A stretch of DNA of 64,000 nt from Deltaproteobacteria bacterium (GCA_018333535.1 JAGXTA010000071.1:99100-163099); one strand, 5' to 3'; positions 6,923 through 61,974 are shown, counted from the first letter of the stretch. Numbers and translations are program-made. Notes: generated from the sequence alone by a model not told the origin.

Positions 6923-6950
6923 TTGACAAATTACAAAAATGTCTATAATA
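6923..6950 (+). promoter_or_regulatory. sigma-70-like promoter candidate upstream of the KAS/histidine-kinase operon
   Basis: TTGACA at 6923-6928 and TATAAT at 6944-6949 (15-17 nt spacer depending on the -10 register), in an AT-rich spacer ~45 bp upstream of the 6992 start. Confidence 0.45.
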
Positions 6951-6991
6951 ATACGTAAGTTGTTTAACTCATTAAAAACTTTAAGAGAAAA

Positions 6992-8242
6992 ATGGACAAT
7001 CAAAAAAGAAGAGTAGTCATCACCGGTATGGGAGTCGTCGCCCCCAACGGGATCGGAATAGATAATTTCTGGGATTCCTTAGTCCACGGCCGGTCTGCAG
7101 TAAGAAGAATCACCCACTTCGACGCCTCCTCCTACCCCTGTCAAGTCGCCGCCGAAGTCCCCGATTTTGATCCCACGGATTATATGGATCCCAAAACTGC
7201 TAAAAGGTTGGACAAATTTGCCCAATTTGCTTTAGTAGCTTCAAAAATGGCTGTCGAAGATTCAAAATTTGATTTAGATTTAATTGATCCCTATAGGATT
7301 GGGGTAGCTATTGCAACTGGAATCGGTGGTGGGGAATGCAAAGAAAATCAACACATTATTTTTATGGAGAAAGGAGTCAAGAGAATAAGTCCTTTTACTG
7401 CAGTAATGATCTGTACTCATTCAGCTGCTGGTATTATTAGCTGTGAATTGGGAGTAAAAGGCCAAAATATTACAATATCTTCGGGTTGTACATCAGGGCT
7501 TGATGCAATCTACTCAGCTTATAATGCGATTCAATTAGGAGATGCTGATATAATGTTTGCTGGTGCCGGTGAAGCTCCCATTACACCTTATATTATTGCA
7601 ATTTTTTGTGCTGCCGGACTTCTTTCAAGGGATAATGGAGAACCAGAGAGAACGATTAAACCCTACGATTCTCGTGGAGAAGGAACAGTATTAGGGGAAG
7701 GAGGGGCCATATTGATATTGGAAGAGCTTCAAAGTGCTCTTAAAAGAAAAGCAAAAATATATGGCGAAATTTTAGGTTATGCTTCGTGCAATGAAGCTTA
7801 TAATATATTTAGAATAGATCCAAGCGGAGAAGCAACTGCAATGGTAATGAAAAAAGCAATAGAGATCGCTCACCTTAGCATAAAAGACATTGACTATATT
7901 AATGCTCATGGGAATGGTTCACCCGAATATGATTTAAATGAGACGGTTGCTATAAAAAAAGTTTTTGGCAAATCGGCAAACTCCATTCCTGTTACTTCAA
8001 TCAAACCAGTAACTGGGCAATCCTTTTCGGTTACTGGAATTCTCCAAATGATTACATGCCTATCAGTCATTAAACATGGTATTATCCCACCAACTATGAA
8101 TCATACAATTCCCTCAATAGGTTGTGATCTCGATTATGTGCCCAACCATTTCAGAAAGAAAGAAGTCAATATTGCCTTAATGAATGCTTTAGGATATGGT
8201 GGAGGTCATACAGCCCTGATCGCTGGTAGATTTAATTATTGA
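6992..8242 (+). CDS. beta-ketoacyl-ACP synthase II-like (FabF/KAS family), divergent
   Basis: 416 aa; active-site Cys (SSGCTSGLDA) and first His (YINAHGNGSP) conserved. The second catalytic His appears replaced by Gln (SIKPVTGQSFSV vs FabF STKSMTGHLLG). Stop overlaps the downstream kinase start (ATGA). Confidence 0.8.
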   Translation: MDNQKRRVVITGMGVVAPNGIGIDNFWDSLVHGRSAVRRITHFDASSYPCQVAAEVPDFDPTDYMDPKTAKRLDKFAQFALVASKMAVEDSKFDLDLIDPYRIGVAIATGIGGGECKENQHIIFMEKGVKRISPFTAVMICTHSAAGIISCELGVKGQNITISSGCTSGLDAIYSAYNAIQLGDADIMFAGAGEAPITPYIIAIFCAAGLLSRDNGEPERTIKPYDSRGEGTVLGEGGAILILEELQSALKRKAKIYGEILGYASCNEAYNIFRIDPSGEATAMVMKKAIEIAHLSIKDIDYINAHGNGSPEYDLNETVAIKKVFGKSANSIPVTSIKPVTGQSFSVTGILQMITCLSVIKHGIIPPTMNHTIPSIGCDLDYVPNHFRKKEVNIALMNALGYGGGHTALIAGRFNY

Positions 8243-10422
8243 ACTTGGAGAAAGATAAATTGTCCATCCCTACCATAACACTTTTATTTGCATTTTTAGT
8301 AAATTTAGGGCTTGGCCTTTTAGTATATATTAAAGCAACTTCTTACAAACGAGTAAATATTATTTTTGCCATCCTTGCCTGGTCTGCAGCCGGTTGGGCT
8401 TTTAGCTTTTTTCTGGTCTATCTTTTCACTGATAATCCTTTAAAATTATTTTTTGGAAGAATGGGTTTTGCAACATCGAGTATTATATCCACTGCATTTC
8501 TTTTATTTGCAATTATCTTTCCTAGTGAACAAAGAGCAGTTAGCTCATTTAAACTTATTATTTTGAGTTTGCCAGCTTTATTATTTTTGGGTTTATCTTT
8601 TACTGATAAGATAGTGTTTTCACTTGGCAGTGGTTTAAAAATGTTTTCCTATGGCCCATTTTATCCATTATTTTCTTTTTATTTAACAGGTTACATAATT
8701 TTAGGATTCGTTTTCTTGATAAAAACATATAGGAAGACTTCTGGACAAGAGAGACTCCAAGTTAAATACTGTTTATTGGGGATGTTTTTTACTTCGAGCC
8801 TTGGATTATTGAATAATTTATTTCTTCCGATGCTTGGGATTTCTATGCTTAATTGGCTCGGTCCGTCCTTAACAGTAATTATGGTAGGTTTTACAACCTA
8901 TTCCATTATTAAACATCGTTTGATGGATATTAATATTGTTTTTAAAAAAGGGACGACTTATATTCTTTTGTTGTTGCTTCTGTTTGTCCCCTCCTTTCTT
9001 TTAATCCTTCTTGGGCAGAAATTTTTCTATGGAAAAATTAATTATTTATTTACGGTGATGATGTTTTCGGTTCTTTTCCTGGTGGCACTCTTATTTTACA
9101 GGATCAAACCAAGGACTGAAAAGGCAGTGGACCAATTCCTTTTCAAAGAACGCTATAATTATCGCGAGACCCTGGGGGAATTGAGCAAGGCCATGGTGAA
9201 TATCCTCGATCTCCAATCACTTTTGAAGAAAATCATGGAGACCGTGACCCAAACCATGGGAGTGGATAAGGCGTCCCTGTTCTTATTGGATGACGAAAAA
9301 GGGGGTTATGATTTATTCGAATCGAAGAATATCAAGATGCCTGCCTCTTCGCCTCTCCTCCGCAAGGAGGCCCCTCTTCCCGGTTATTTACAGAAGATGA
9401 GAGAAATTGTTGTAAAAGAAGAATTAGCCAAAGGAACCAATATCCCCGAATTAAAAATGGTCATTGAGCAGATGACTTCGCTGGAAGCGGAGGTCAGCAT
9501 TCCCCTGCTTTCGAAAGGACAGCTTATCGGCATTATTAATCTCAGCCATAAATTCAATAAAGATGTCTATTATCAAGAGGACATTGAACTCCTCACCACT
9601 CTGGCCAATCAGACCGCCATTGCTGTTGAGAATGCAAGGCTCTTTGAAGACCTGAAAAGGTCAAAATCCTATATTCGCAGGGCGGACCGCCTCGCCTCCC
9701 TTGGAACCCTGACGGCAGGCCTGGCCCATGAAATTCGCAACCCCCTGGTTGCCATCAAGACGCTCACCCAGTTGTTGCCGGAACGGCTTGAGGATGAGGA
9801 ATTTCGTAATCATTTTCTAAAAATTGCCGCAGGAGAGGTCGATCGGATCTCACATCTGATCAATGAACTCCTCGATTTTGCCAGGCCTTCGATCCCAAAA
9901 TTGGAATTTGAAGATGTCAACAGCATTTTGGATGGAATGATCCTTCTGGTGTCGACAGAGAGCAAGAAAAAGAATGTTCATATTGAGAAACAATATGCGA
10001 CGGATCTTCCTTCCGTTAAGGTTGACCGGGAACAGATCAAGCAGGTTTTTTTAAACATCCTGCTAAACGCCATTGAAGCAACTCCTGAGAATGGGAAAAT
10101 CACTGTAAAAACCCATTCTTTTTTAAAACCCGGAGGGGAACCCTATCTTCAGGTCGAATTTAAGGATACGGGATGCGGCATCCCTCAAGAATATTTAGAG
10201 GAAATTTTCAATCCCTTTTATACAACGAAAACGACGGGAAGCGGCCTGGGACTGTCGATCTCCAACCAGATCGTACGGGACCACAAAGGATATATTGATG
10301 TTGAGAGTCAAAAGGACAAAGGGACCTCTTTCTTCATCAATTTGCCCGTGGACCAGGACCATCCAAGAAGAAGACGAGTTGATCTCGAAACTCAGCATAC
10401 GCCTTTTTTTGAGCCACGATGA
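8239..10422 (+). CDS. membrane sensor histidine kinase with multi-TM N-terminal domain, GAF, HisKA and HATPase_c; PEP-CTERM system kinase PrsK-like
   Basis: 727 aa; ~12 hydrophobic segments in the first ~290 aa. GAF-like region; H-box LAHEIRNPLVAIKTLTQLL; N-box LNILLNAIEA; G-boxes DTGCGIP and GSGLGLSI. Architecture matches the TIGR02916 description; PEP-CTERM proteins and a PrsT-like TPR lipoprotein lie elsewhere in the window. Confidence 0.75.
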   Translation: MNLEKDKLSIPTITLLFAFLVNLGLGLLVYIKATSYKRVNIIFAILAWSAAGWAFSFFLVYLFTDNPLKLFFGRMGFATSSIISTAFLLFAIIFPSEQRAVSSFKLIILSLPALLFLGLSFTDKIVFSLGSGLKMFSYGPFYPLFSFYLTGYIILGFVFLIKTYRKTSGQERLQVKYCLLGMFFTSSLGLLNNLFLPMLGISMLNWLGPSLTVIMVGFTTYSIIKHRLMDINIVFKKGTTYILLLLLLFVPSFLLILLGQKFFYGKINYLFTVMMFSVLFLVALLFYRIKPRTEKAVDQFLFKERYNYRETLGELSKAMVNILDLQSLLKKIMETVTQTMGVDKASLFLLDDEKGGYDLFESKNIKMPASSPLLRKEAPLPGYLQKMREIVVKEELAKGTNIPELKMVIEQMTSLEAEVSIPLLSKGQLIGIINLSHKFNKDVYYQEDIELLTTLANQTAIAVENARLFEDLKRSKSYIRRADRLASLGTLTAGLAHEIRNPLVAIKTLTQLLPERLEDEEFRNHFLKIAAGEVDRISHLINELLDFARPSIPKLEFEDVNSILDGMILLVSTESKKKNVHIEKQYATDLPSVKVDREQIKQVFLNILLNAIEATPENGKITVKTHSFLKPGGEPYLQVEFKDTGCGIPQEYLEEIFNPFYTTKTTGSGLGLSISNQIVRDHKGYIDVESQKDKGTSFFINLPVDQDHPRRRRVDLETQHTPFFEPR

Positions 10423-11990
10423 ACTATCAAGATTTAATTCACTCTCCCATCCTCTCCCCCGGGGTTGCCAAACTGGTTCAGAAATGCGCCCTGAACAACG
10501 CCCCTGTTTTTATCCAGGGCGAACAGGGGACGGGAAAAGAGCTGATCGCAAAGATCATCCATCATACAGGGGATTGGAAATCCTCTCTTTTTTACAGGGT
10601 GGATTGTCAAATCCTTCATGAGAATACTCTCTTTGACCACCTCTCTCCCCTTTTTGAAAAGATCCTTTTCGGGATGACCCCGGCGACCTTCTTTTTAAAC
10701 GAGGTGGGACGCCTCGGCCGTAGGGATCAGTTGAAACTCCTGGAACTGGTCGAGGACGGCCTGCTCCAGAACGGAGTGGAGAAAAAAACCGTTAAAAACA
10801 TCCGCTTCATCTCCTCCTCCTCGGAGAACTTAGAAGAAAAGGTGGCGCAGGGAGCATTTTCAGGGGACCTCTATTTCCGCTTAAGAACCATGGCCATCCA
10901 TGTCCCGCCGCTGAGGGACCGTCCGAGAGAAATCGGCGCCATCGCTCAATATATTCTCGAAGAGAGTGTCAAGCAGTTGAAGCTTAAAAGAATGGGGATC
11001 TCGAATGACGTCCTCAGGTTGTTGGAGAGATACTGGTGGCCCGGGAACCTGAAGGAACTGGAGAGGGTCGTCACCCGTTGCGCCATTTTATCAGAAGGTG
11101 AAAAGATTATGGAAAAAGATCTCTCGATCGAGAACGGGATGGATAGAAATTCCTTTTTCTCTTTCGTTGAAAAGGCGGAGACGAGGCCGGCGGCGCCTCC
11201 CAAGAACGAACCCTCCCGTAACCATTCCAACGGACTCAATATCCCCGATGCCTCGTATTTTTTCCTTGAATTGGTCCATCGCATCAAAAATCCCCTGGTC
11301 TCCATCAAGACCTTCACTCAACTGCTGAGGGATAAATTTAATGATGCGGAATTCAGGGGCTATTTCTACAGGATCGTCACCGAGGATATCGAAAAGATTG
11401 ACGGCGTGCTCAATGGCCTCCTCAATTACATCCGGATCAATCACCCGGTCGAGAAGAAAGACACCATTCATTTCATCATCGAAGATGTCCTGAAAAAGCA
11501 TGGGACGCAGATTGAAAACAAGAGGATCAAGCTATTCAGGAAGTTTGAAAAAGACCTTCCTGAAACGATCCTCCATGAAGAGCAGTTGCGATACATTTTG
11601 ACTTCCCTGATTCAGTATGCCATTCCTGCGATCCCAGCCAGCGGAAGCATCGGTTTTTTAACGAAGTCCCTGGATGACCGCCCGGTTCGCGTGGAAAACG
11701 GAGAAGGCCAAACGCCTTCCTCAACAGAGAGGAGATACATCGAAATCATGATGGTTTTCACCGGCTACAAGAAACCCATCGATCCGCTGGATACGTTATT
11801 GGGAGCGCCTTTACTACGCGAGGAGGAATTGACCGATCTGGAGATACGGCTCATCAAAGAGATGATCGAGAGGAACCGGGGGATGATGAAATTCGAAGTC
11901 AATGAGAAGAAGCTCAGGACCCTGGTTTCCCTGAAATTCCCCGCGGAGAGAAGAAAGGTGATCACTTATCAGGCTACGAATTCATCATAA
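10419..11990 (+). CDS. fusion of a sigma-54-type AAA+ domain (degenerate GAFTGA) with a degenerate histidine-kinase-like domain
   Basis: 523 aa; Walker A GEQGTGKELIAKIIH, arginine-finger region GDLYFRLRTMAIHVPPLRDR, GAFTGA position reads MTPATF. No HTH. C-terminal half has HisKA-like VHRIKNPLVSIKTFTQLL but no N-box Asn and no DxGxG. Paralogous to 35387..36244. Start overlaps prsK-like stop. Confidence 0.7.
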   Translation: MNYQDLIHSPILSPGVAKLVQKCALNNAPVFIQGEQGTGKELIAKIIHHTGDWKSSLFYRVDCQILHENTLFDHLSPLFEKILFGMTPATFFLNEVGRLGRRDQLKLLELVEDGLLQNGVEKKTVKNIRFISSSSENLEEKVAQGAFSGDLYFRLRTMAIHVPPLRDRPREIGAIAQYILEESVKQLKLKRMGISNDVLRLLERYWWPGNLKELERVVTRCAILSEGEKIMEKDLSIENGMDRNSFFSFVEKAETRPAAPPKNEPSRNHSNGLNIPDASYFFLELVHRIKNPLVSIKTFTQLLRDKFNDAEFRGYFYRIVTEDIEKIDGVLNGLLNYIRINHPVEKKDTIHFIIEDVLKKHGTQIENKRIKLFRKFEKDLPETILHEEQLRYILTSLIQYAIPAIPASGSIGFLTKSLDDRPVRVENGEGQTPSSTERRYIEIMMVFTGYKKPIDPLDTLLGAPLLREEELTDLEIRLIKEMIERNRGMMKFEVNEKKLRTLVSLKFPAERRKVITYQATNSS

Positions 11991-11996
11991 GGAAGC

Positions 11997-12190
11997 CAGG
12001 AAGGCAGGAAAAATTCAAATTCTAAAACCCAAATTCTTTACCTTTTTTTTATTCATGGTTTCCTGGATTCCTAATAAGGAGTAACATAATAAGGAAGCCA
12101 AGAAGGCAGGAAAAATTCAAATTCTAAAACCCAAATTCTTTATTTTTTTTTTCATGGTTTCCTAAATTCCTAATGAAAAAATTCCTAATA
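11997..12190. repeat. tandem duplication (~95 bp x2) containing the dispersed AGGAAGCCAGGAA motif, upstream of the NtrC-type regulator
   Basis: Sequence aaggaagccaggaaggcaggaaaaattcaaattctaaaacccaaattcttta...catggtttcct..attcctaat occurs twice in tandem. The ttcctggcttcct motif recurs near 20470, 40965, 43855, 51080 and 54820. Confidence 0.7.
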
Positions 12191-12194
12191 AGGA

Positions 12195-13607
12195 GTGGCG
12201 ATGGTTGGAAAGGAAGCATTGAAAAGCATTCTGGTTGTCGATGACGAGGTGGGGGCCAGAGAATCCCTAAAAATGATTTTAAAGGGGGAGTACCAGGTCT
12301 TTTTGGCGAAAAACGCCGAAGAGGCCTTTCAACAGGTCGATGGCCATATCCCTGACGTAATCCTTCTTGATATCATCCTGCCGGATATGGATGGCCTGAG
12401 GATTCTGAAAAAGTTGAAGCAGACCCTTCCCGAACAGATCGTCATCATGATCACTGCCACCAAGACAGTGAAGACAGCCGTGGAAGCGATGAAACTCGGA
12501 GCTTATGACTACGTCACCAAGCCCTTCGATGTGGATGAGCTTCGCTTGATCATCAACCGGGCCCTTTCCACAAAGGCGCTGAAGGAGGAAAACCAGCGGC
12601 TCTGGATGGAGGTTGACCGGAATTTTGGCTTTGAAAATATCGTGGGAAAGAGCAAGGGAATGAAGGATATTTTTAAAGTGGTGAAGCAGGTGGCCGATAC
12701 CCGATCCACGGTTCTGATCATGGGAGAGAGCGGAACAGGGAAAGAACTCATCTCACGCGCCATCCACTACCATAGCCCGCGGAAAAATCATCCCTTCGTC
12801 ACCATCAACTGTGCGGCCATTCCGGAGACCCTGATCGAGAGCGAACTCTTCGGCCATGAAAAGGGGGCCTTCACCAATGCGATCGAGAAAAAATTGGGTC
12901 GTTTTGAGGCGGCCCATGAGGGGACTCTCTTTCTTGACGAGATTGGTGAATTGAGCCTGATGACCCAGGCGAAGATCCTCCGGTTTCTCGAAGAGAAGGA
13001 ACTCAACCGGGTGGGAGGTTCGAAGACGATTAAGGTCGATGTGAGGCTCATTACAGCGACCAATAAAGATTTGCCCCAGCTTGTCAAGACAGGACAGTTT
13101 CGAGAGGATCTCTACTACCGGATCAATGTGGTTCCCATCATCCTTCCCCCGTTGCGAGAGCGAAGAGAGGATATCCCCCTATTGATCAGCCATTTTACAA
13201 AGAAATTCAGCGAGGAGAACCAAAAACAGTTGAAGGGGGTCAGCAAAGAGGCCTTGGAATTGCTGCTGAACTACGAATGGCCCGGAAATGTCAGGGAACT
13301 GGAGAACCTGATCGAACGGGTGATTGCCCTCACCCACAATGAGTATATCCAGCCGGACGAATTGCCCCTTCCCATCATCAATCAATCCAAGGCGAATGGT
13401 TTGAAAGAATCGGTCTTAAGCGGCCAGATCTCCTTCTCGAGGGCGGAGGAAGAATTTGAGAAGGAAATCATTCTGGATGCCCTGAGAAAAGCCAATTTTA
13501 TTCAATCGCACGCCGCAGAGATTTTAGGGATCAGTCGAAGGATTTTGAAATATAAGATGGACAAATTGGGGATCCAGCAGCAGGACCGGATCAAGCAATA
13601 CTCCTAA
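12195..13607 (+). CDS. sigma-54-dependent response regulator (NtrC family: REC + AAA+ + Fis-type HTH); PrsR-like
   Basis: 470 aa; REC domain (VVDDEVGARESL...DIILPDMDG); Walker A GESGTGKELISRAIH; GAFTNA motif; FREDLYYRINVVPIILPPLRERRED; C-terminal HTH ILGISRRILKYKM. Confidence 0.85.
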   Translation: MAMVGKEALKSILVVDDEVGARESLKMILKGEYQVFLAKNAEEAFQQVDGHIPDVILLDIILPDMDGLRILKKLKQTLPEQIVIMITATKTVKTAVEAMKLGAYDYVTKPFDVDELRLIINRALSTKALKEENQRLWMEVDRNFGFENIVGKSKGMKDIFKVVKQVADTRSTVLIMGESGTGKELISRAIHYHSPRKNHPFVTINCAAIPETLIESELFGHEKGAFTNAIEKKLGRFEAAHEGTLFLDEIGELSLMTQAKILRFLEEKELNRVGGSKTIKVDVRLITATNKDLPQLVKTGQFREDLYYRINVVPIILPPLRERREDIPLLISHFTKKFSEENQKQLKGVSKEALELLLNYEWPGNVRELENLIERVIALTHNEYIQPDELPLPIINQSKANGLKESVLSGQISFSRAEEEFEKEIILDALRKANFIQSHAAEILGISRRILKYKMDKLGIQQQDRIKQYS

Positions 13608-13841
13608 ATCTTCCACCTGCCAAATATTTAGTTCCTGCGCCGAAAGATACGGTTTTAAGTTCAAGAGGCCCGCCTAAAATGTAAACCCTTGTTCATTTTT
13701 GTACGTCCCTTTTAGCCCGATAATGCCAGAATGCCACCCTCATAACTTGTAATAACAATAGCCCTGAAATATCAACAGGTTATTATACTGAAACAATTCA
13801 ATGATTTTAATTCAAAATGGCAACATTTTTGCTTTAATAGT

Positions 13842-15005
13842 ATGTCTATTCAATCGGATCGAAAGGAAAAAAGAATGGAACCTAAAAAAAGTTTGGCCAA
13901 TATCCTGATTGTGGATGACGAAATAGGCCCGAGGGAATCCTTAAGAATGATTCTTAAACCCCATTATAACATCTTCATTGCAGAGAACGGGCATTCGGCC
14001 ATCCAGATGCTCCGGCAGACCGAGATGGATGTTGTCACCCTGGATATTAGAATGCCCGGCATGTCAGGCATTGACACCCTCAAGGAGATCAGGCTTCTCG
14101 ATCCTGATGTGATGGTCGTCATCATCACGGGCTTTGGGACGCTAAAGAGCGCGATCGAGGCCATCCGATACGGGGTGTTCGATTATATCCCGAAACCTTT
14201 TAATGTCCCGGAGATCATGTGCATTATTGAAAAATCGATCCAGCGGAGAAAATTGAACCTGAAAGTCAAGGAGATGCTTCGTCAGCGCTCCGATTCCGGC
14301 AATCAAAACGGTCCGATGGATACCGACCTTTTGCTTTCGAAGGAAATGAGCGGTCTTGCCGATTCGGGAAACGGAGAAAGAGGCGCTTCGGAAAATCAGA
14401 ACTGTCTCGAATTTTCAAAAGTTCTTGCCTTTACGCTTGAGGAGAAAGACCCTTATACGTCGGGACATTCAGAGCGCGTTTGTTACTATTCTGATTTCAT
14501 CTCAAAAAAATTGTCGCTCAATCCAAAGGACAGGAATGAAATCAGGGTCGCTTCTTACCTCCATGATATCGGAAAAATTGGCATCAGCAACCGTTTTATC
14601 AATAAGAAGGGCGCTCTCTCGTCCACCGAATGGGCCATCATCAAACAGCATACCAAAAAGTCACTCGAACTCTTGGTGCCCCTGAACCTTTCACCCCATA
14701 CCCTTTCCTATGTTCACCACCACCATGAGCGGTACGATGGAACCGGTTATCCGGATGGATTGTCGGAGGACCGGATCCCATTGGGAGCCAGGATTATTGC
14801 AATTGCGGATGCTTATGACAGCATGACCTCCGACCGGCCCTACCGCAAACCCCTAACGAATGGGGAGGCAAAAAATGAGCTCTTGAAATTTGCCGGAAAA
14901 CAGTTTGATCCCCAGTTGGTCACCATTTTTCTGAACATTCTTAGGGAGATGGAAGAGGTCTTTCTGGTCAAGGACCATGTCAGAGTTCCATCCGTTTCCT
15001 ATTAA
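13842..15005 (+). CDS. response regulator with HD-GYP phosphohydrolase domain (putative c-di-GMP phosphodiesterase)
   Basis: 387 aa; N-terminal REC (ILIVDDEIGPRESL...LDIRMPGMSG); C-terminal HD-GYP motifs YLHDIGKIGI and HHHERYDGTGYP. Confidence 0.85.
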   Translation: MSIQSDRKEKRMEPKKSLANILIVDDEIGPRESLRMILKPHYNIFIAENGHSAIQMLRQTEMDVVTLDIRMPGMSGIDTLKEIRLLDPDVMVVIITGFGTLKSAIEAIRYGVFDYIPKPFNVPEIMCIIEKSIQRRKLNLKVKEMLRQRSDSGNQNGPMDTDLLLSKEMSGLADSGNGERGASENQNCLEFSKVLAFTLEEKDPYTSGHSERVCYYSDFISKKLSLNPKDRNEIRVASYLHDIGKIGISNRFINKKGALSSTEWAIIKQHTKKSLELLVPLNLSPHTLSYVHHHHERYDGTGYPDGLSEDRIPLGARIIAIADAYDSMTSDRPYRKPLTNGEAKNELLKFAGKQFDPQLVTIFLNILREMEEVFLVKDHVRVPSVSY

Positions 15006-15022: not shown

Positions 15023-15784
15023 ATGAACCAGATCATCCGATGCATCACCTGCGATGAAATATTCACAAAAACCCCTTACGACCAGTGGCCTGAGTATGAG
15101 TATGTTTCGGTTAACCGTCCTGAGCCCAGCCGGACGATTGAAAAAGATGATTTTCAAGATTTTTTAAAACATCATCGGAACCATCCGATGGAGGACCTGA
15201 AGGTTCTGGAGGACTCCTTCGTCAGCGAAAAACCTTATTTCGAGCCGACAAAGGCCTCCTATTTCAAGGCGACAAATGGAAAAGAGATGTTTGTGATCAA
15301 GAAATTCAGGAAGAGGATCGATGAACCACTGTCCTATCAATTGATCCGGGGAGACTACTCCTTAAAACTTCTCCGCCTTGAAATCCAGGCCGAAGAGATT
15401 GTCAAACAACTTAAAAAAGAACTGAATCCCTCCCCTCTTCCGGAGCCTCAGTTAGAGGCCTTTCTCAAATTGTATCGGCAGGTTCTCAAAACCATCGATA
15501 TAAATAGCCTGGAGAGGGTTCCCGAAGATTCCCCTCATCCCCTCGAGATCTATTATAAAATGGATGATGTCAGCCTCGCTTACCTGCTAAGAAATTGCAG
15601 GACAATATTTAAAGGGCAGGAATATCAAGCCGTCGAGGCGTTTATCCAGCGTCACAGGGAGGATGGGGTTTTATTGTTGAAAGCCGTCTACCAGATTCAA
15701 ATCTCTGAGTCATCCAAGTCAAAGAAAGGCGCCCTTCCCATCCCTCACGCCATAGAAGGGAAGAAATATGTAGAGAAAACATAA
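15023..15784 (+). CDS. hypothetical protein
   Basis: 253 aa ORF with good coding appearance directly downstream of the HD-GYP regulator. N-terminal CITCDE...; no recognisable domain. Confidence 0.5.
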   Translation: MNQIIRCITCDEIFTKTPYDQWPEYEYVSVNRPEPSRTIEKDDFQDFLKHHRNHPMEDLKVLEDSFVSEKPYFEPTKASYFKATNGKEMFVIKKFRKRIDEPLSYQLIRGDYSLKLLRLEIQAEEIVKQLKKELNPSPLPEPQLEAFLKLYRQVLKTIDINSLERVPEDSPHPLEIYYKMDDVSLAYLLRNCRTIFKGQEYQAVEAFIQRHREDGVLLLKAVYQIQISESSKSKKGALPIPHAIEGKKYVEKT

Positions 15785-24919: not shown

Positions 24920-25267
24920 TTAAAACATCCCTAAAAAATCTTCAAGGAACTTCTTTCCTTTATGGTCAAGTTCGTCAAACTTAATACCTGCCTCATTTTC
25001 TTTCTGAGACGCCCAGATAACCTCTCCCTTTCCTTTCAGTCTAAAAAAATCTTCATACGTCTCAAAAAATATTTCTTTTCCTGAACGAAAAATATCCTTA
25101 GTTATTAAAGGGTTATCCGCCTTTAATTTAAATCCGCCACGGGATATATTCTGAACCCATCCAAGCATTATGGGTTCCATATCAGATGTTCGAATGGATA
25201 CCTTTGTTTCCAGATTGACTCTCGGATATTCCCGTCTCTCAGATTGGCCATCCTGGGCAATTTCCAT
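24920..25267 (-). CDS. PilZ-domain protein (putative c-di-GMP receptor)
   Basis: 115 aa; RxxxR (ERREYPRV) and N/DxSxGG (NISRGGF) PilZ motifs. Confidence 0.7.
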   Translation of the reverse strand: MEIAQDGQSERREYPRVNLETKVSIRTSDMEPIMLGWVQNISRGGFKLKADNPLITKDIFRSGKEIFFETYEDFFRLKGKGEVIWASQKENEAGIKFDELDHKGKKFLEDFLGMF

Positions 25268-25403
25268 TTTTTATCCCTTCGTAAAAAAGAGGTTTTTTAA
25301 ATTTTAATTAATCGATATTTATTAAGCAATTAATATGCCAAATAATTTCAGAGCTTTCAATAAAGACTACAAGAGAATTCGATAAAACCTTGAATCCAAA
25401 AAA

Positions 25404-25452
25404 GCGCCCCTGGCCCGACTCGAACGGGCGGCACACGGATTAGGAATCCGTT
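25404..25452 (+). repeat. attL: 49-bp direct repeat identical to the 3' part of tRNA-Arg(CCT)
   Basis: gcgcccctggcccgactcgaacgggcggcacacggattaggaatccgtt at 25404-25452 matches 34810-34858, which is inside the tRNA gene on the minus strand. Confidence 0.85.
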
Positions 25453-25722: not shown

Positions 25723-26922
25723 ATGTCAAGACGGAAAGCGACGGAGTTTGAGGGCGTGAGATACCGGAGCCATCCGAGCCGGAAGCATGGGATCAAGAAT
25801 GATCAGTATTTCTCCATCCGTTACCGAGTGGACGGGAAGAGAGTCGAGGAGGGTTTGGGGTGGGCCAGCAAGGGGATGACGGCAAAGAAGGCAGCGCTTC
25901 AGCTTGCAGAGCTTCAAGAGGCGCACAGGAAGGGGACAGGTGAACCTGTAACCCTTCGAGAGAAACGGAAGATTGCCAGGGCAAAGAGAGGGAAGCAAGA
26001 GAAACAGGGGATCACATTCGGAGATTATTTCATCAATACTTTCATTCCACAGGCTGTCATTGAAAAACCGAGGGAAACGAAAGATAAAAAATCCCACTAT
26101 GAACACTGGATCAAGCCGGTAATGGGCGCCCTTCCCTTCCCGGAGATCGGCGTCCTTGAATTAGAGAGGGTCAAGACAAACATGTTGACCGCTGGTAAGG
26201 CTCCCCGAACGATTCAATATGTGTTTTCAACAATTCGGCGGGTATGGAATGATGCAAAATTGAAGGGGATCGTATCAGAGGAAAGTCCGACCCGGAAGAT
26301 CAAACTGGACCGCTTCGATAACAAGCGGGCCAGGTATTTCACCCATGATGAGGCGGAAAAATTCTTGACCGAACTGAAAAAGAGAAATGGTTCGTTATGG
26401 GATATGGCTCTCGTTTCTCTTCAATCGGGCCTTCGCTTCAGTGAAATTGCGAACCTGAGATACGGGGATATTGACCTAAAGAGAAATATCATTGGGATCC
26501 GGGACAGCAAGGGAGGTTTTTCAAGATATGCCCGAATGACCGAAGAGGTCAGGAATGTTTTTTCAAGAATGGAGCCCGGGGCCAGGGAAGCCCTCATTTT
26601 CCATGATGCCGATGGAATGAGGATCAAGAGGCCGTCGAAAATTTATATGAAGGTCATAGACGGCCTGGGATTCAATAACGGCGTAACAGACCGGCGACAA
26701 CGATTGACATATCACTCTTTGCGACATACATATGCAAGCTGGCTTGTAGATCGGGGAGTCGGGCTGTATGATGTTCAAAAACTTCTCGGTCATAAGAACA
26801 GCCAACTAACCGAGCGATACAGCCATTTATCAGATACCCGGCTGGACAATGACGTGAGGGAATTCGAAAAAGGAATCAAGCAGGCCCGGAGAGGTAAGGT
26901 CGTTGCAATAGGAAAGCGTTAA
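25723..26922 (+). CDS. tyrosine-type site-specific integrase (phage integrase family)
   Basis: 399 aa; C-terminal catalytic region LTYHSLRHTYASWLVDRGVGLYDVQKLLGHKNSQLTERYSHL (R..HxxR..Y). Confidence 0.9.
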   Translation: MSRRKATEFEGVRYRSHPSRKHGIKNDQYFSIRYRVDGKRVEEGLGWASKGMTAKKAALQLAELQEAHRKGTGEPVTLREKRKIARAKRGKQEKQGITFGDYFINTFIPQAVIEKPRETKDKKSHYEHWIKPVMGALPFPEIGVLELERVKTNMLTAGKAPRTIQYVFSTIRRVWNDAKLKGIVSEESPTRKIKLDRFDNKRARYFTHDEAEKFLTELKKRNGSLWDMALVSLQSGLRFSEIANLRYGDIDLKRNIIGIRDSKGGFSRYARMTEEVRNVFSRMEPGAREALIFHDADGMRIKRPSKIYMKVIDGLGFNNGVTDRRQRLTYHSLRHTYASWLVDRGVGLYDVQKLLGHKNSQLTERYSHLSDTRLDNDVREFEKGIKQARRGKVVAIGKR

Positions 26923-27015
26923 ATTGAAAATGGGGAAATAGGCGGGCCAGCCGACAAGCCGGGAACCCTACCCGGTTTTTCCCCATTCACTACAAGGGCA
27001 GCGAAGGGGGCTGAG

Positions 27016-34518: not shown

Positions 34519-34810
34519 CTCTCAGGCTGGATCGCAAAAGGGGGAGATGGATTAATGAGAATATACCGGAGGGGGGAGCTAAGGGAATTGGAGTGCGACT
34601 AAAAACAGTCACACTCTCTAATGCAGGCATAGGCAGGAACGAAAGCCCGATACTAAGGGGATTGGCCGAGTCGCAGTCCATACGGGCGGAGGAGGTGAAC
34701 CAAATGGGAGTCTATAAGACCGTTCATGGCGGGGGACAGATGGGGGATAAACCGTGTTGGGCCAGGAAAATAAAAAAGGCTTGAAACCCTCCAAGCCTTG
34801 ATAGTCTAAG

Positions 34811-34884
34811 CGCCCCTGGCCCGACTCGAACGGGCGGCACACGGATTAGGAATCCGTTGCTCTATCCACCTGAGCTACAGGGGC
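34811..34884 (-). tRNA. tRNA-Arg (anticodon CCT)
   Basis: rc reads GCCCCTGTAGCTCAGGTGGATAGAGCAACGGATTCCTAATCCGTGTGCCGCCCGTTCGAGTCGGGCCAGGGGCG. Cloverleaf with anticodon loop TTCCTAA and T-loop TTCGAGT; no encoded CCA. Confidence 0.85.
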
Positions 34885-35149: not shown

Positions 35150-35374
35150 CTATTTGGACTCAACTATTTGACCTGTCATCTTGTCAATGGTCACTTCAAC
35201 AAAATCCATTCTTTCCATATTCCAATCATTCCCTAAAAACTTTTTCACCCAATTCATGATCGATTCAGGGGTGATTCGTTGAGGGTCTTTTCTTCTTTCG
35301 GGGAGAATCCCAATTAAATGACGTTGGTCCTCTTGGTTGTGATGGTAGAATTCATAAGCCAATATATGTTCCAT
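35150..35374 (-). CDS. small conserved protein, paralog of 49433..49618
   Basis: 74 aa; shares YEFY...HL[IV]GILPERRK[DE]PxRIT.ESI.NWVKK with the 61-aa ORF at 49433. Located 12 nt downstream of the degenerate-kinase gene. Confidence 0.5.
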   Translation of the reverse strand: MEHILAYEFYHHNQEDQRHLIGILPERRKDPQRITPESIMNWVKKFLGNDWNMERMDFVEVTIDKMTGQIVESK

Positions 35375-35386
35375 ATTTCTTATCCC

Positions 35387-36244
35387 TTAATTGACCGATG
35401 GATAATAAACGACCTTCCTTCTCTCTACTGGAAATCTTAAAGTGATTAATGTCCTTCCCTTTTGGCCATCTATTCCAAATTCCATCACCCCTTGATTTTT
35501 TTTGACCATTTCGTCAATGAGTCTTAACTCAAAATCAAGGGTTTCTTTCTTTTCTGGGGAAGGGTCTTTGATGATGGGTCCAAATTGTTCTATCGTTTTT
35601 CTATAACCATCAAAGAGGACCGATATTTCAATATATTTTCCTTCCGCGAAGGATGGAGCGCTGACCTCTCCATGCTGCTTCTGATGGATAAACAATCTGG
35701 TCATAAAGCCAACCCCTCCATTGACAGGGATCCATCTTATGGCATACTTAAGGGTAGAGTCTAAAATATATTTCAAATGTTCATCTGGAGTGATGGTTTC
35801 GGGAAGGTCTTCTTTAAAATTTTTAAACACTCGAATCTTCTTTTCAGACATTTGGGTTTGGTTGTTCTTTAGCACATTTTCGATGAGGGCGTGTACCGTA
35901 TTTATTTTTGTTTCCGTGGAATTGACCTTGAGGTAATTCAGAACAGAGCTCAGGAGCAGATCGACCTTCCCGATCTCCTCATTGAGAATATGATGAAAAT
36001 GATCATCGAAGGTCTTATCGTTAAATTTTCCTCGGGATATTTGCGTAAAATATTTGATGGATTCCAGTGAATGGTCAATGCGTTGAATCAATTCGATGAG
36101 AAGAGAGGATTTGAATGAACCATGCAGCTCATTTGCCATCATCAGTTTTTTAAATTCGAGTGAGCCAGGATCACCCTTATCGGATTGAGGAAAAATAGAA
36201 TGGAATAAATCATTCTGGGGATTAAAAATAGAATTATTTTTCAT
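35387..36244 (-). CDS. degenerate histidine-kinase-like protein (HisKA/HATPase-like, lacks N-box and G-box residues)
   Basis: 285 aa; clear paralog of the C-terminal half of 10419..11990 (KFND, FTQ, F.K.DLPETI...YAI..IP..G..GF.T, RTLITLRFPVERRKV). The phospho-His position appears to be Gln (LIQRIDHSL vs LVHRIKNPL). Confidence 0.6.
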   Translation of the reverse strand: MKNNSIFNPQNDLFHSIFPQSDKGDPGSLEFKKLMMANELHGSFKSSLLIELIQRIDHSLESIKYFTQISRGKFNDKTFDDHFHHILNEEIGKVDLLLSSVLNYLKVNSTETKINTVHALIENVLKNNQTQMSEKKIRVFKNFKEDLPETITPDEHLKYILDSTLKYAIRWIPVNGGVGFMTRLFIHQKQHGEVSAPSFAEGKYIEISVLFDGYRKTIEQFGPIIKDPSPEKKETLDFELRLIDEMVKKNQGVMEFGIDGQKGRTLITLRFPVERRKVVYYPSVN

Positions 36245-36811: not shown

Positions 36812-39097
36812 TTACTTTAATTTCTCTAACACACTCTTCGCCTCTTCGGCTCCTGCAAACTTAGCGTCCAATTCAAGGGCTTTTTTCAGCTCCCTCTTTG
36901 CATTTTCGTTATCACCATTCTTAAGGTAAGCCATTCCAAGATGGTATCGCATGACAGGATTGTCCGTAATTTTTTCATTCGCCTCTTTCAAATAAGTAAT
37001 CGCACGGGTGAAAATATTCTTTTTGTAATAAACCCATCCGAGGGTATCCGAGATGTGGGGGTCATCCGGAAACTGTTCCTTTGCGCCTTGAGCTAAATTC
37101 AAGGCTTCATCAATATTCTCACCCTTCTCCGCATAGAGATAAGCTAGGTTATTGGCTGCAGGGGCGAATTTAGAATTAATTTTCAGGGCCTTCTGGTAGT
37201 ATTCCTTGGCCTTCTCATACTTCTTCTGAGTGTCATAGATAATGCCTAATCCCATGAGGGCAGAAAGAGAATCCGGCGCCTTCTGGAGAGCGGCACTGTA
37301 TCCCTCGATGGCCTTCTCTGTTAAATTCTGCCGGATATAAAAACTGGCAAGGGAGGTATGAAATCCTGCAACATTGGGATTGAGTTCGATCGCCTTTTTA
37401 TAATTCGTTTCTGCCTGGTCCGCCTCTTTATTTACCTCGTAAAGACGACCCAGCATATTGTAGAAAAAAGGATTTTGTGGAGAAGCCTTAATCTGTGCTT
37501 CCACCCTCTCCAATGCCTTTTTGCTCTCTTTCTGGTTCATGTAGACGACGGCAATGAGATTAAGCGCCTCTAAAAAATTTGGCTGGAGGGACAATGCCTT
37601 CTCAAATTGGGGTAATGCATCCTTCTCCCTCTTTTGCACCAAAAGGATTCGTCCTTTATGGAAATATCCGACTGGATTATTGGGCGCGATCTGAATGACT
37701 TCTTCAAAAGACTTGCTGGCTTTCGGGATATCCCTCTTCAGGAGATAGATGTTTCCAAGGATCAGATGGGCCTGGATCGATTTAGGGTCTCGTTTCAAAA
37801 TCTCCTGTGCTTCCTCAATGGCTAAATCTAAAGCCCCTGTCCTGAGATGGATATCTGCAAGCAGCAATCTCCCTTCAATCCAATTGGGGTTCAGTTTAAC
37901 CGCCTCGGCCAGCACCGTCTTTCCCTGCTGGATATCCCTGTTGCCGAGATGGGCAAGGCCGAGGAAGTGATGGGCCATAAAAGATTTTGGATTATCTTTG
38001 AGGTAAGACTGAAATAAATTAATGGCATCATTGAATTCAGTCTTGACCAGATAGAGGCGGCCCTTGAGGAATATTCCTTCATCGCTTTTGGGATTGATCT
38101 CAAGGATTTTCGCAACCATCTCAGAGGCCTTATCAAACTTACGATCATTAAGGTGGACTTCGGCCAGTTTAGCCCTTGCAGGAATATTTTTCGAATCCAC
38201 CTCGAGCGCCTTCTGGTAGGCCTCAATGGCCTTCTCTTTCTTCCCCCAGATTAAATAGAAGTCTCCCAGATGGATGTGAGAAAGGACCTTCTTGGGATCT
38301 ACTTCGATAGATTTGATGAATTGTTTTTCTGCATCCTCCATTTTCCTTAAAGAAACGTAGAAATTTCCCAAGGCAATGTAAGTATTTCGGTCTTTAGGTT
38401 CGATTTTAATCACCTCAATCAGTTCAGCCTCAGCCAACTCGGCTTTCCCTGTTCTCCGATAGAATTCAGCCAGTCCATATCGAGCCTTTGTCGATTTTTC
38501 ATCGACCTGGATGGCCTCTTTGAATGTCTGTTCTGCCTTAGCAAAATCCTTCTTCATAATATAAAGGTTGGCTAAATGGAGATGGGCTTCAATCTTCTTG
38601 GGATCTTGTTCGATCGCCTTCTTCGCCTCCTCAATGGCCTTGTCCAGATTCCTATCCACAGTATAGATGGAGCTCATGAGCAGACGGCCCGAGGCATTGT
38701 TTGGATCTTTTGCTAGGATCTTTTCGGCCTGTTCTTTTGCCTTCTGGGGGTCTCTTGACAGGAGAAAGAGATTTCCAAGCTGAAGTCTCGCTTCAATTAA
38801 ATCGGGGTTTAACTCAATACTTTTCGAAAACTCAGAAAAAGCCTCCCGAAACTCTCTCACTCCTAAGTGGGTGAGCCCGAGTTTGTAACGGGCCTCGGCA
38901 TTCTTGGGTTCGATCTGAAGAACATTCTTGTATTCGATCATGGCTTCTTTGAATTTGTTTTGCGCGAAATACTTCTCTCCCCTCTTCCAGTGCTTCTCCT
39001 TTTTTGCTTCCTTGCTGCAACCCGATAATCCGGACAGAATGAAGCAAAAAAGAATGATAAAAACAAAAACCGATCTCCTCTTATTTAAAAAGTCCAT
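36812..39097 (-). CDS. TPR-repeat lipoprotein (PEP-CTERM system PrsT-like)
   Basis: 761 aa; signal peptide and lipobox (ILSGLSGCSKE), then >15 TPR repeats throughout. Confidence 0.7.
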   Translation of the reverse strand: MDFLNKRRSVFVFIILFCFILSGLSGCSKEAKKEKHWKRGEKYFAQNKFKEAMIEYKNVLQIEPKNAEARYKLGLTHLGVREFREAFSEFSKSIELNPDLIEARLQLGNLFLLSRDPQKAKEQAEKILAKDPNNASGRLLMSSIYTVDRNLDKAIEEAKKAIEQDPKKIEAHLHLANLYIMKKDFAKAEQTFKEAIQVDEKSTKARYGLAEFYRRTGKAELAEAELIEVIKIEPKDRNTYIALGNFYVSLRKMEDAEKQFIKSIEVDPKKVLSHIHLGDFYLIWGKKEKAIEAYQKALEVDSKNIPARAKLAEVHLNDRKFDKASEMVAKILEINPKSDEGIFLKGRLYLVKTEFNDAINLFQSYLKDNPKSFMAHHFLGLAHLGNRDIQQGKTVLAEAVKLNPNWIEGRLLLADIHLRTGALDLAIEEAQEILKRDPKSIQAHLILGNIYLLKRDIPKASKSFEEVIQIAPNNPVGYFHKGRILLVQKREKDALPQFEKALSLQPNFLEALNLIAVVYMNQKESKKALERVEAQIKASPQNPFFYNMLGRLYEVNKEADQAETNYKKAIELNPNVAGFHTSLASFYIRQNLTEKAIEGYSAALQKAPDSLSALMGLGIIYDTQKKYEKAKEYYQKALKINSKFAPAANNLAYLYAEKGENIDEALNLAQGAKEQFPDDPHISDTLGWVYYKKNIFTRAITYLKEANEKITDNPVMRYHLGMAYLKNGDNENAKRELKKALELDAKFAGAEEAKSVLEKLK

Positions 39098-52320: not shown

Positions 52321-52907
52321 TTACACTTCTTTCTTGATGATTTTTAGTCTTTCCATCATTTCGTATAATGTCGGCCTGCTGATCCCCAGTTCCTCGGCCG
52401 CTTTAGAGATATTTCCCCTGCTTCTTGAAATAGCCCTTTGAATCAGGTCTCTTTCAAGTTCTTCCCGGGCCTCCCTCAAACCCTTGCCCTCATATTTTTC
52501 AAACGGTGAGGCAAGATCGAGGTCCTCTGGAGTTATCTGGGTTCCCTCAGCCATGATGACAGCCCGCTTGACCCGGTTTTCAAGCTCACGGATGTTTCGG
52601 GCCAGTTATATGTTTCGATCGCACGAACGGCCTGTGGTGTAAACCCGGAGATTCTCTTCTTGTTTTCCGATGAAAACCTCTGCAACAATGCCGTAGCCAG
52701 GAGCAAAATGTCCCCTTCCCTCTCCCGGAGAGGGGGCACCGAGATCACGACCACGCCAAGCCGGTAATATAAATCCTCTCTAAAACTGCCCTTCTTCATC
52801 CCCTCCTGCAGATCACGGTTCGAGGCGGCAATGACACGGACATCGACAGATATCTCCTCCCTGCCTCCGATTCTTTCGATCTTCTGTTCTTGAAGAAAAC
52901 GGAGCAA
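52321..52907 (-). pseudogene. sigma-54-dependent activator pseudogene (5'-truncated at the 27-bp repeat; internal -1 frameshift)
   Basis: ORFs 52533..52907 (..FREDLYYRLGVVVISVPPLRERE..) and 52321..52554 (Fis-type HTH NISKAAEELGISRPTLYE) are the C-terminal AAA and HTH parts. YNWPETSVSL.. should read YNWPGNIRELEN (one base missing near 52590). Coding stops at the repeat at 52905. Confidence 0.7.
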
Positions 52908-61426: not shown

Positions 61427-61471
61427 AACTTTAGTCCTCCTTATGAATTTATTTTTCTTATAGGATTTTTA

Positions 61472-61640
61472 TTAATTTAAGGATCTAATTTTCCTTCTTA
61501 CTAAGAAACCCAGTCCAAGAAGCCCAGCTCCAAGGAGCAATAAGGTAGCCGGCTCGGGCGTGATGATGACAGATTGTTTATTTATAATATTCCTTTGAGC
61601 GTCATATTCATAGATTTGTTTAATTAATTTGCAACTAAGG
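61472..61640 (-). pseudogene. PEP-CTERM sorting-domain remnant (C-terminal fragment only)
   Basis: Minus-strand frame encodes ...QIYEYDAQRNIINKQSVIITPEPATLLLLGAGLLGLGFLVRRKIRSLN* with no start codon or signal peptide. Not in ORF track (<60 aa). Confidence 0.5.
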
Positions 61641-61974
61641 TGCCAATAAATATTAAATTAAGTAAGTTATTTTTGATCAGAACAACTCTATGAAATTATT
61701 GATATATATATATTTCTTAGGTTGAACGCTTTTGGTTTTTCTTTTTCAAGTTTTTTAAATAATTGTAAACTATTCTGACAATTCACAAGAGTGTTAAGTG
61801 TTGAGTGTTAAGTGTTGGGAAAAATAGTTTAAAAAACAATAAATTAGGGGCTACATAATCAAAAATTTAGAAAAATTGAAATTGCAAAGAATCCCGACAA
61901 TTCGCTAAGTGTTAAATGTTGGTGATATATTGTAAAATGCAGCCAAATGGAGGGAATTGGTGATGAATTTAATA

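Follow-up and report, generated by a model that had tools for sequence, protein, structure and literature searches.

A σ54-linked two-component locus paralogous to PrsK/PrsR carries a degenerate AAA+/pseudo-kinase fusion and an HD-GYP regulator in an uncultured Thermodesulfobacteriota lineage

The locus and its genes

We analyzed a 64,000-nucleotide (nt) stretch of DNA from a Deltaproteobacteria bacterium (GCA_018333535.1, JAGXTA010000071.1:99100-163099), referred to here as the window and used as the frame for all positions unless another contig is named. Its 8-15 kb region holds a signalling locus that encodes a sensor histidine kinase, a protein designated ORF3, a σ54 activator of the NtrC family and a response regulator with a cyclic di-GMP (c-di-GMP) phosphodiesterase domain of the HD-GYP type. 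The original prediction had read the kinase and the activator as the PrsK/PrsR pair of the PEP-CTERM system, separated by an extra gene. Comparison with curated protein families and with related loci indicates instead that the pair is paralogous to PrsK/PrsR, that the gene between them encodes a disabled σ54-activator ATPase fused to a disabled histidine kinase, and that a conserved σ54 promoter precedes the HD-GYP gene.

The four open reading frames (ORFs) lie on the plus strand at 8239-10422 (727 amino acids, aa), 10419-11990 (523 aa), 12195-13607 (470 aa) and 13842-15005 (387 aa). Protein families were scored with Pfam and with NCBIfam, whose equivalog models carry curated cutoffs. The kinase consists of a transmembrane (TM) region followed by GAF, HisKA (H-box LAHEIRNPL) and HATPase_c domains. 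Pfam matches in ORF3 comprise a partial Sigma54_activat, AAA_lid_14 and a weak HisKA with neither HATPase_c nor HTH, and together with alignments and an AlphaFold2 (AF2) model they resolve it into a degenerate AAA+ domain of the bacterial enhancer-binding protein (bEBP) type, a linker, a dimerization and histidine-phosphotransfer (DHp) domain and a degenerate catalytic and ATP-binding (CA) domain. The NtrC-family activator has a receiver (REC) domain, a σ54-type AAA+ domain (Sigma54_activat, with the loop motif GAFTNA) and a Fis-type helix-turn-helix (HTH; HTH_8), and the fourth protein combines REC with HD_5/HD. Thus, the order, coordinates and domain content of the four genes as first described were largely correct, except that the 12 TM segments ascribed to the kinase N-terminus are reduced by hydropathy to about nine: a PF16927 (HisKA_7TM) module at aa 15-231 and two further segments at about aa 238-259 and 268-288. 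An alternative kinase start at 8260 is called in JGI. Four further genes were overlooked in the original prediction and are described below: a FabF-like gene, a 253-aa ORF, a truncated PrsR copy and a stand-alone paralog of the pseudo-kinase half of ORF3.

Upstream of the kinase lies a gene for a FabF-like β-ketoacyl-ACP synthase II paralog (6992..8242, plus strand), whose stop codon overlaps the kinase start. The protein scores 422 bits on NF005589 (cutoff 387), yet falls under the cutoff of TIGR03150, and alignment to FabF (PDB identifier 4ls5) reveals a Cys-His-Gln active site rather than Cys-His-His, with the Cys and the first His intact and the Gln lying in the motif KPVTGQSF; eight of the nine FabF-like orthologs found also have Gln at the second catalytic His position. 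Overlaps of 4 nt between stop and start codons join both the FabF-like gene to the kinase and the kinase to ORF3, and in relatives the kinase and ORF3 genes are spaced by 4-10 nt. A candidate σ70-type promoter, TTGACA-18-AATAAT (6923..6952, plus strand), lies in a fitting intergenic region upstream of this FabF-like/kinase/ORF3 unit and is the top-scoring site (11/12) in a scan of 6.4-17.2 kb, where the total number of such sites does not exceed chance, and it is therefore a candidate only. Following the HD-GYP gene by 17 nt is a conserved ORF of 253 aa (hyp253; 15023..15784, plus strand), which has no match in Pfam or NCBIfam. Rfam, searched over 6.9-15.8 kb at gathering thresholds, gave no match to a known RNA element.

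ORF3 joins a degenerate AAA+ domain to a pseudo-kinase

ORF3 was characterized from two alignments of its family (A1 and A2), pairwise comparison with the kinase and the activator next to it, the AF2 model, a fold search against the PDB and a sequence-profile search against the PDB. Its AAA+ domain occupies about aa 1-236 and is followed by the linker, the DHp domain with His287 (H287; HRIKNP) and the CA-like domain (about aa 350-510). Among 834 homologs, the best 120 are all 505-524 aa long and at least 59% identical, with identical domains. Public databases give such proteins generic names that vary from entry to entry ('σ54-interacting regulator', 'nitrogen-specific histidine kinase' or 'hypothetical').

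Measured against functional bEBPs, ORF3 retains only Walker A and the fold. Walker A is kept throughout the family, the Walker B Asp varies (N, K, D or E), the GAFTGA loop is deleted, the FRED motif has become FSxD with the loss of one Arg, and the DNA-binding HTH domain is missing. Judged from these motifs, ORF3 cannot activate σ54, because it has neither a GAFTGA loop nor a DNA-binding domain, its Walker B Asp is not conserved and one Arg is lost. It likewise falls outside catalytic histidine kinases despite the presence of H287. The H-box is invariant in 48 family members and reads H-R-I-K-N-P, which places Arg at His+1; in the CA-like domain the N-box Asn is replaced by Tyr (Y400), the G1 box DxGxG by FTGYKK, and the G2 box is absent. 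Autophosphorylation of HisKA proteins uses an acidic residue at His+1, within an E/DxxT/N motif. By the same kind of evidence, the loss of the N, G1 and G2 boxes together with Arg at His+1 means that ORF3 cannot autophosphorylate. A C-terminal ERRKV motif is invariant in the family, and ORF3 is clearly under constraint.

Structural comparisons agree with this domain assignment. The AF2 model has globular domains with a predicted local distance difference test (pLDDT) score of about 80-86, and its AAA+ fold matches those of NtrC1, ZraR, PspF, LuxO and NifA. AAA+ matches dominated the fold search with the entire model, which returned nothing on the C-terminal domain, and a sequence profile of the C-terminal module was used against the PDB instead; this profile spans the DHp and CA core of ZraS (PDB identifier 9jfj, E = 4e-11) and also aligns to the CA domain of NtrB. 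The first DHp helix (α1) is nearly the same in ORF3, LVHRIKNPLVSIKTFTQLL, and in the adjacent kinase, LAHEIRNPLVAIKTLTQLL. A literature search found no described fusion of an AAA+ domain with a pseudo-kinase; on these comparisons ORF3 joins a disabled σ54-activator ATPase and a disabled histidine kinase in a hitherto undescribed fusion. Residues of the FleQ type for c-di-GMP binding are not conserved in the ORF3 AAA+ domain (LIHS versus LFRS, AKI versus ARN), a comparison made by eye on which we base no claim.

Conservation of the cassette and its σ54 promoter

ORF3 is found in 38 GTDB species, all of them uncultured metagenome-assembled genomes (MAGs) of Thermodesulfobacteriota of the 'Syntrophaceae' type, a lineage without a cultured member. 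The gene order TPR–MobA–DnaJ–Zn-ribbon, FabF-like–kinase–ORF3–NtrC–HD-GYP–hyp253–CcsB, 2-oxoacid oxidoreductase–ArsA–aminotransferase was followed in 36 informative related loci as far as each contig reaches, and places the cassette in a housekeeping block rather than in an exopolysaccharide (EPS) locus. In all 36 loci ORF3 lies between the kinase and the regulator. The extended signalling cascade that had been proposed around the pair is borne out to the extent that ORF3 and the HD-GYP regulator accompany it throughout this sample, though not as a Prs system. Two of the loci, L031 and L039 of one subclade, have lost the FabF-like gene and hyp253, and in these, and probably in L029, the kinase is a soluble GAF-kinase that lacks the 7TM module. 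Because L031 and L039 retain the rest despite these losses, the conserved core consists of the kinase, ORF3, the NtrC-type activator, the σ54 promoter and the REC–HD-GYP protein; hyp253, which is kept 3' of the HD-GYP gene in most related loci, is accessory. The translational coupling of the FabF-like gene to the kinase, and the joint absence of this gene and the kinase 7TM module from L031 and L039, hint at a lipid-related signal.

The σ54 (-24/-12) promoter TGGCAACATTTTTGCT (13818..13833, plus strand) lies between the NtrC and HD-GYP genes and is one of only three sites in the window, scanned on both strands, that reach the threshold of at least 10/11 matches. An equivalent promoter occupies the same place in 31/31 related loci, with 10/11 matches in 30 of them and 9/11 in L029, and in a promoter-anchored alignment of the spacers it is the sole invariant island of an otherwise diverged sequence. 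A candidate activator-binding site, the inverted repeat AAAATG-N12-CATTTT (13676..13699, plus strand), is located 142 nt upstream of the -24 element; an equivalent repeat occurs at -140 to -157 in 14 of the 31 loci, where it forms a conserved block in the same alignment.

The gene served by this promoter (13842..15005, plus strand) encodes a REC–HD-GYP c-di-GMP phosphodiesterase regulator (REC 94.8 bits, HD_5 124.5 bits) in which both the HD and the GYP motifs are intact (HDIGK ... HHHERYDGTGYP); the protein scores 225 bits on the NosR-family model, under its cutoff of 400. The real start is probably the ATG at 13875, which is favoured because it is preceded by a Shine-Dalgarno sequence and fits the position of the promoter, and which is also called in JGI. 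The REC domains of the NtrC-type and HD-GYP regulators share 40.8% identity, compared with 27-30% between them and that of PrsR. RpfG is a REC-HD-GYP phosphodiesterase that forms the output of a two-component system. The present locus resembles RpfC/RpfG in having such a protein as its putative phosphorylation-controlled c-di-GMP phosphodiesterase output, and differs from it, and from the negative feedback partners of bEBPs, in that the HD-GYP gene is itself under a σ54 promoter beside the bEBP gene.

A putative feed-forward circuit and the role of ORF3

Based on these observations, we consider it reasonably probable that this is a σ54/c-di-GMP signalling cassette specific to the lineage, distinct from PrsK/PrsR though paralogous to it, which works as a feed-forward circuit with ORF3 as a NifL-like modulator. 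The membrane kinase would be co-translated with ORF3 from the unit headed by the FabF-like gene, and this one kinase, we infer, phosphorylates both receivers, that of the NtrC-type activator and that of the REC–HD-GYP protein. The activated NtrC-type regulator would bind the upstream inverted repeat and open the σ54 promoter of the HD-GYP gene, and the resulting phosphodiesterase would in turn require phosphorylation to degrade c-di-GMP. The outcome would be a coherent feed-forward loop that lowers c-di-GMP, with probable effects on surface and biofilm functions. ORF3 may act as a stoichiometric modulator of the NifL kind that docks on the activator through its pseudo-kinase core, or joins the AAA+ ring as a non-hydrolysing subunit, or does both, and its DHp domain may also compete or heterodimerise with the kinase for both receivers. 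The logic of the circuit is well supported by the comparative evidence, and the mechanism suggested for ORF3 is hypothetical. Through σ54, a two-component system of an uncultured Thermodesulfobacteriota lineage appears to govern how a c-di-GMP phosphodiesterase is made as well as how it is activated. The two-component system, the σ54 activator and the HD-GYP regulator are of known kinds; what appears new is the chimeric pseudo-enzyme family within.

The analogy with NifL rests on the finding that its kinase-like core of DH and GHKL domains suffices to bind the AAA+ domain of NifA and to keep NifA inactive (PMC12998190). As in NifL–NifA, a non-kinase core resembling DH and GHKL domains of a histidine kinase is coupled to a bEBP AAA+ domain, in ORF3 with both domain types in one chain; the ORF3 gene also adjoins that of the activator, and its translational coupling suggests a fixed stoichiometry. 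NifL is a separate protein from NifA, with PAS sensors and a GHKL domain that binds nucleotide, whereas ORF3 is without PAS domains and carries a degenerate AAA+ domain of its own. In anti-activators of the NifL type, the core binds the AAA+ domain of the partner bEBP and prevents the latter from oligomerising; the likeness of ORF3 to them is one of domain composition, with no membership at the sequence level. PspA and FleN are other trans-acting modulators of bEBP AAA+ domains (discussed in PMC12998190), and the pairs PspA–PspF, FleN–FleQ and HrpV–HrpS all involve protein modulators of such domains that are often encoded within σ54 regulons; ORF3, a chimera of kinase and AAA+ parts, is unrelated to PspA, FleN and HrpV. 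If a NifL-like role is true, ORF3 would show that a kinase scaffold has been recruited a second time, and independently, for the regulation of σ54 activators, and would offer a handle on the coupling of σ54 to c-di-GMP in syntrophic and sediment bacteria.

Several observations weigh against this circuit and the NifL-like role. Its support is comparative, and the synteny comes from a single lineage in which the whole neighbourhood of about 20 kb is collinear, so that gene order alone is not proof of functional coupling. The upstream inverted repeat is recognisable in under half of the loci, and an rpoN gene was not seen in the window. The CA-like domain of ORF3, unlike that of NifL, is without nucleotide-binding motifs, and the AF2 model is of moderate quality (mean pLDDT 70, with DHp helices at about 55-60). 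Stand-alone relatives of the pseudo-kinase half, described below, are usually not beside σ54 activators or kinases in the six contexts examined, and a simple neighbourhood argument that the module binds AAA+ domains is therefore weakened.

The invariance of the ORF3 His is a further such point, as it leaves room for a genuine part in phosphotransfer, in which the His would be phosphorylated in trans by the CA domain of the kinase in a heterodimer, or the DHp domain would act as a receiver phosphatase, and the AAA+ domain would serve only as a nucleotide-sensing input. We regard this as unlikely, though it accounts for a number of features: the whole H-box around H287 is retained in the 48 family members, including the Asn at His+4 that is relevant to phosphatase activity (HRIKN), Walker A is intact, translation is coupled to that of the kinase, and the near-identity of DHp α1 would favour heterodimers and shared receiver specificity. 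However, the Arg at His+1 stands in place of the acidic residue of HisKA autophosphorylation, and the invariance of the His could stem from the close kinship of the sampled sequences (at least 59% identity). In most stand-alone relatives of the module this His is missing, so that the core function of the module should not depend on it.

The kinase and regulator are paralogs of PrsK and PrsR

The similarity of the pair to PrsK/PrsR (TIGR02916/TIGR02915, which together with the PrsT model TIGR02917 describe the system; PMC1569441) is real at the level of architecture, as both combine a multi-TM and GAF kinase with a REC–AAA+–Fis σ54 activator, and it does not extend to family identity. In the model search that had been proposed as a check, the kinase scored 170.3 bits on TIGR02916 (cutoff 300), with higher scores on the AtoS (261.5 bits) and ZraS (200.6 bits) models, and the regulator scored 461.5 bits on TIGR02915 (cutoff 502.6) and more, 519.1, on AtoC. 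Judged from true members of the same clade the models are well calibrated, and the identity of the pair as PrsK/PrsR is ruled out by them, scores under both cutoffs being an outcome that the original prediction had itself named as refuting it. Related MAGs contain PrsR orthologs that score 614 and 607 bits, and the kinases that precede these score 406 and 430 bits on TIGR02916, as against about 145 on AtoS. The locus kinase is collinear with the true PrsKs over aa 72-704 at only about 25% identity, whereas the true PrsKs are 52% identical to each other, and its H-box LAHEIRNPL differs from the VVHDLKN of PrsK. Similarly, the locus regulator is 45% identical to the organism's true PrsR, and its REC domain is without the 5-residue insertion of the latter. 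In 12 of 13 genomes, prsK was found in tandem with prsR near EPS or exosortase genes (Haft 2006, PMC1569441), whereas here the two genes are not in tandem, since ORF3 lies between them, and the neighbours (DnaJ, MobA, CcsB, 2-oxoacid oxidoreductase, ArsA and aminotransferase) are not EPS or exosortase surroundings.

The true Prs system of this organism was located elsewhere. A contig (L042) that overlaps window positions 59236-64000 with 0 mismatches served as an extension of about 8 kb past the window end, and encodes a full-length PrsR (L042:1872-3302, equivalent to about 68.1-69.6 kb of the window and about 4 kb past its end) that scores 621.6 bits on TIGR02915 against 443.8 on AtoC. This gene adjoins two further PEP-CTERM genes beyond the window, and a protein 93% identical to its product is named 'PEP-CTERM-box response regulator transcription factor' by NCBI; the orthologs from related MAGs mentioned above are 72-74% identical. 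Upstream of it, an IS66 transposase and a DruA-like gene stand in place of prsK, and in this MAG the partner kinase may have been displaced. In the relatives the PrsK–PrsR pairs sit among EPS and PEP-CTERM genes, and one contig (L044) also carries an exosortase (TIGR02602 138.4 bits, cutoff 105.55) a few kb upstream of PrsK; no exosortase or prsK remnant was found in the window or its 8-kb extension.

The two PEP-CTERM proteins and the PrsT-like TPR lipoprotein on which the original prediction drew are indeed present with scores above the cutoffs, but they are not beside the locus: the distance is 21-47 kb, or about 9.4 kb shorter if a probable integrated element (see below) is discounted. Both PEP-CTERM genes (51278-52090 and 60467-61426, minus strand) pass TIGR02595 and PF07589, and PrsT (36812..39097, minus strand) scores 424 bits on TIGR02917 (cutoff 312.2) and has a lipobox-like LSGC at its N-terminus. 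A second TPR protein, running from 61975 to past the window end (719 aa), reaches 225 bits on TIGR02917 and is not a PrsT member. The gene at 60467-61426 is preceded by a perfect σ54 promoter, TGGCACCTTAGTTGCA (61630..61645, minus strand), and by 17-nt motifs that resemble the PEP-CTERM box at 61764-61780 (TGTCAGAATAGTTTACA) and 61883-61899. A third such motif (52203-52219) lies upstream of the gene at 51278-52090, where no good σ54 site was found. The motifs at 61764-61780 and 52203-52219 end in TTTACA, as does the 17-nt motif 1 described for PEP-CTERM genes (Haft 2006, PMC1569441), and PEP-CTERM-box promoters combining motif 1 with a σ54 site also occur in L042 (promoter at L042:5219-5234). 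A truncated and frame-broken copy of the true PrsR (about aa 283-472; 52321..52907, minus strand) adjoins the gene at 51278-52090; TIGR02915 is the best match of both its pieces (148 and 70 bits), which are 69-71% identical to the PrsR of L042. With a true PrsR, PrsT and PEP-CTERM genes with a σ54 site and motif 1 all present, this organism does have a genuine Prs regulon, and the locus at 8-15 kb is not part of it.

That the locus could represent a second, diverged Prs system (a PrsK2/PrsR2) still in control of PEP-CTERM and EPS genes, ORF3 being an insertion particular to the lineage, seems to us quite improbable. Such a reading, which is that of the original prediction, draws on the end-to-end alignment of the kinase with the PrsK model and the true PrsKs, TM and GAF regions included, and on the presence of PF16927 and GAF in the true PrsKs as well. 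The regulator is just 41 bits under the PrsR cutoff, the candidate binding site is a dyad of the TGT...CA type like the PEP-CTERM box, and a paralog of the pseudo-kinase half of ORF3 adjoins PrsT. Cross-talk is also conceivable, because an IS66 element replaces prsK upstream of the true PrsR. However, the better fit of AtoS and AtoC, the large margin by which true PrsKs (406-430 bits) and PrsRs (607-622 bits) of the same clade stand above the locus proteins, the different H-box and REC types and the housekeeping neighbourhood all speak against it, the spacing of the dyad is 1 nt off that of the PEP-CTERM box, and the conserved σ54 promoter by the regulator drives the HD-GYP gene. Thus, since the cutoffs are missed, the true PrsR lies elsewhere and this promoter serves the HD-GYP gene, the comparisons indicate that the locus pair is a paralogous system and not a Prs system with an insertion. 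An attractive annotation is thereby corrected, and the case illustrates that architecture alone cannot separate PrsK/PrsR from their paralogs.

The curated models closest to the kinase core and the regulator are those of AtoS/AtoC, ZraS/ZraR and NtrB/NtrC, with which the locus pair shares a HisKA-type H-box and to which, through ZraS and NtrB, the pseudo-kinase profile also aligns. All locus scores nevertheless fall under the equivalog cutoffs of these systems, which are without an intervening pseudo-kinase gene and an HD-GYP target, and the locus sensor, unlike theirs, is of the 7TM and GAF type. That the remainder is an ordinary NtrB/NtrC-like pair and ORF3 a functionless, decaying pseudogene fused from a duplicated kinase and activator would fit the damage to all its catalytic motif classes (Walker B, GAFTGA, one Arg and the N, G1 and G2 boxes), but is rejected as highly improbable on conservation, as the frame is full-length in the 38 species and in hundreds of metagenome clusters at 52-85% identity, long stretches are invariant in contrast to the diverged intergenic DNA on either side, the substituted residues of the motifs are conserved in their own right (Y400, FTGYKK, ERRKV), and the pseudo-kinase module forms a widespread stand-alone family.

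Stand-alone relatives of the pseudo-kinase module

When the pseudo-kinase module was searched alone, 101 clusters were obtained at E<=1e-30, which are mostly stand-alone proteins of 200-350 aa and include one or two fusions of the ORF3 type; a query of metagenome contigs with a single protein returned only close relatives. The module has no Pfam or NCBIfam model. In the stand-alone proteins DLPE and FPxERRK are conserved, whereas the His position varies (Q, Y, G, S and others occur). These relatives, together with the degenerate bEBP AAA+ and pseudo-kinase chimeras, define a protein family.

One member, p285 (35387..36244, minus strand), was detected in the window by tblastn; it is 42% identical to the pseudo-kinase half of ORF3, has Gln in place of the H-box His and lies directly downstream of PrsT, within the order papain-like peptidase–PrsT–p285–74-aa ORF (p74) of close relatives. 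Small paralogous ORFs of 61-74 aa ('YEFY...GILPERRK') without a family match occur at 35150-35374 (minus strand), directly after p285, at 49433-49618 (plus strand) and at L045:12412-12591, near the true PrsR of a related MAG. Natively, p285 is two genes from a PilZ-domain (c-di-GMP receptor) gene (24920..25267, minus strand; Pfam PilZ 43 bits) with a σ54-type promoter, TGGCATATTAATTGCT (25325-25340; 10/11), and this PilZ gene possibly belongs to the same regulon as the cassette.

The PilZ gene is now parted from the tRNA, p74, p285 and PrsT genes by what is probably an integrated mobile element at about 25.4-34.9 kb. This stretch of about 9.4 kb is flanked by a direct repeat, 49 nt long, of the 3' part of tRNA-Arg(CCU), at 25404-25452 and 34810-34884, and carries a tyrosine integrase (25723-26922), an int-alpA RNA (26931-26998) and a 740-aa primase/AAA-like ORF.

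The neighbourhoods of six diverse stand-alone members were examined for context. Members of a 280-299-aa subgroup lie behind MurJ and an FAD oxidoreductase, in one case followed by a Wzz/Wzy/glycosyltransferase cluster. In the subgroup of about 310 aa, a PilZ gene is adjacent in 3/3 contexts; one member follows minor pilins and PilY1, and an HD_5 gene and a pilin come downstream of another. Strong σ54-type promoters precede these operons (L062:34-49, L063:4778-4793 and L064:5947-5962), which derive from unrelated metagenome contigs and read minor pilins–PilY1–PilZ–pseudo-histidine kinase (pHK), HTH–PilZ–pHK and pHK–HD_5–pilin. The module thus keeps company with σ54 regulons and c-di-GMP components, and usually not with the activator genes themselves. 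As a tentative and rather doubtful extension of the NifL-like role of ORF3, we suggest that ORF3 and its stand-alone relatives of about 280-320 aa might constitute a pseudo-histidine-kinase family (with DLPE, FPxERRK and a dispensable His) whose members would modulate σ54 activators through protein-protein contacts, in regulons that serve c-di-GMP turnover, PilZ receptors, type IV pili and surface structures of the EPS/PEP-CTERM kind; ORF3 would be the 'Rosetta-stone' fusion that reveals the bEBP AAA+ domain as the partner. If this is true, anti-activation of the NifL kind would be a widespread mechanism and not specific to nif.

Other features of the window

Rfam matches to group II intron domains at 49798-49937 and 50163-50252 (plus strand; RF02003 89.5 bits, RF00029 53.5 bits) enclose no ORF for an intron-encoded protein, and the element is on this evidence an ORF-less or degraded group II intron. 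The region 43868-46079 (minus strand) contains a papain-like peptidase that is 74.6% identical to one beside the exosortase region in L044. Upstream of it, a TIGR03790-family gene is split into the overlapping ORFs 44812-45663 and 45660-46079, and beyond this lies a PilY1-like protein of 806 aa (46393-48813). The stretch between 39 and 59 kb contains many inserted toxin-antitoxin pairs.

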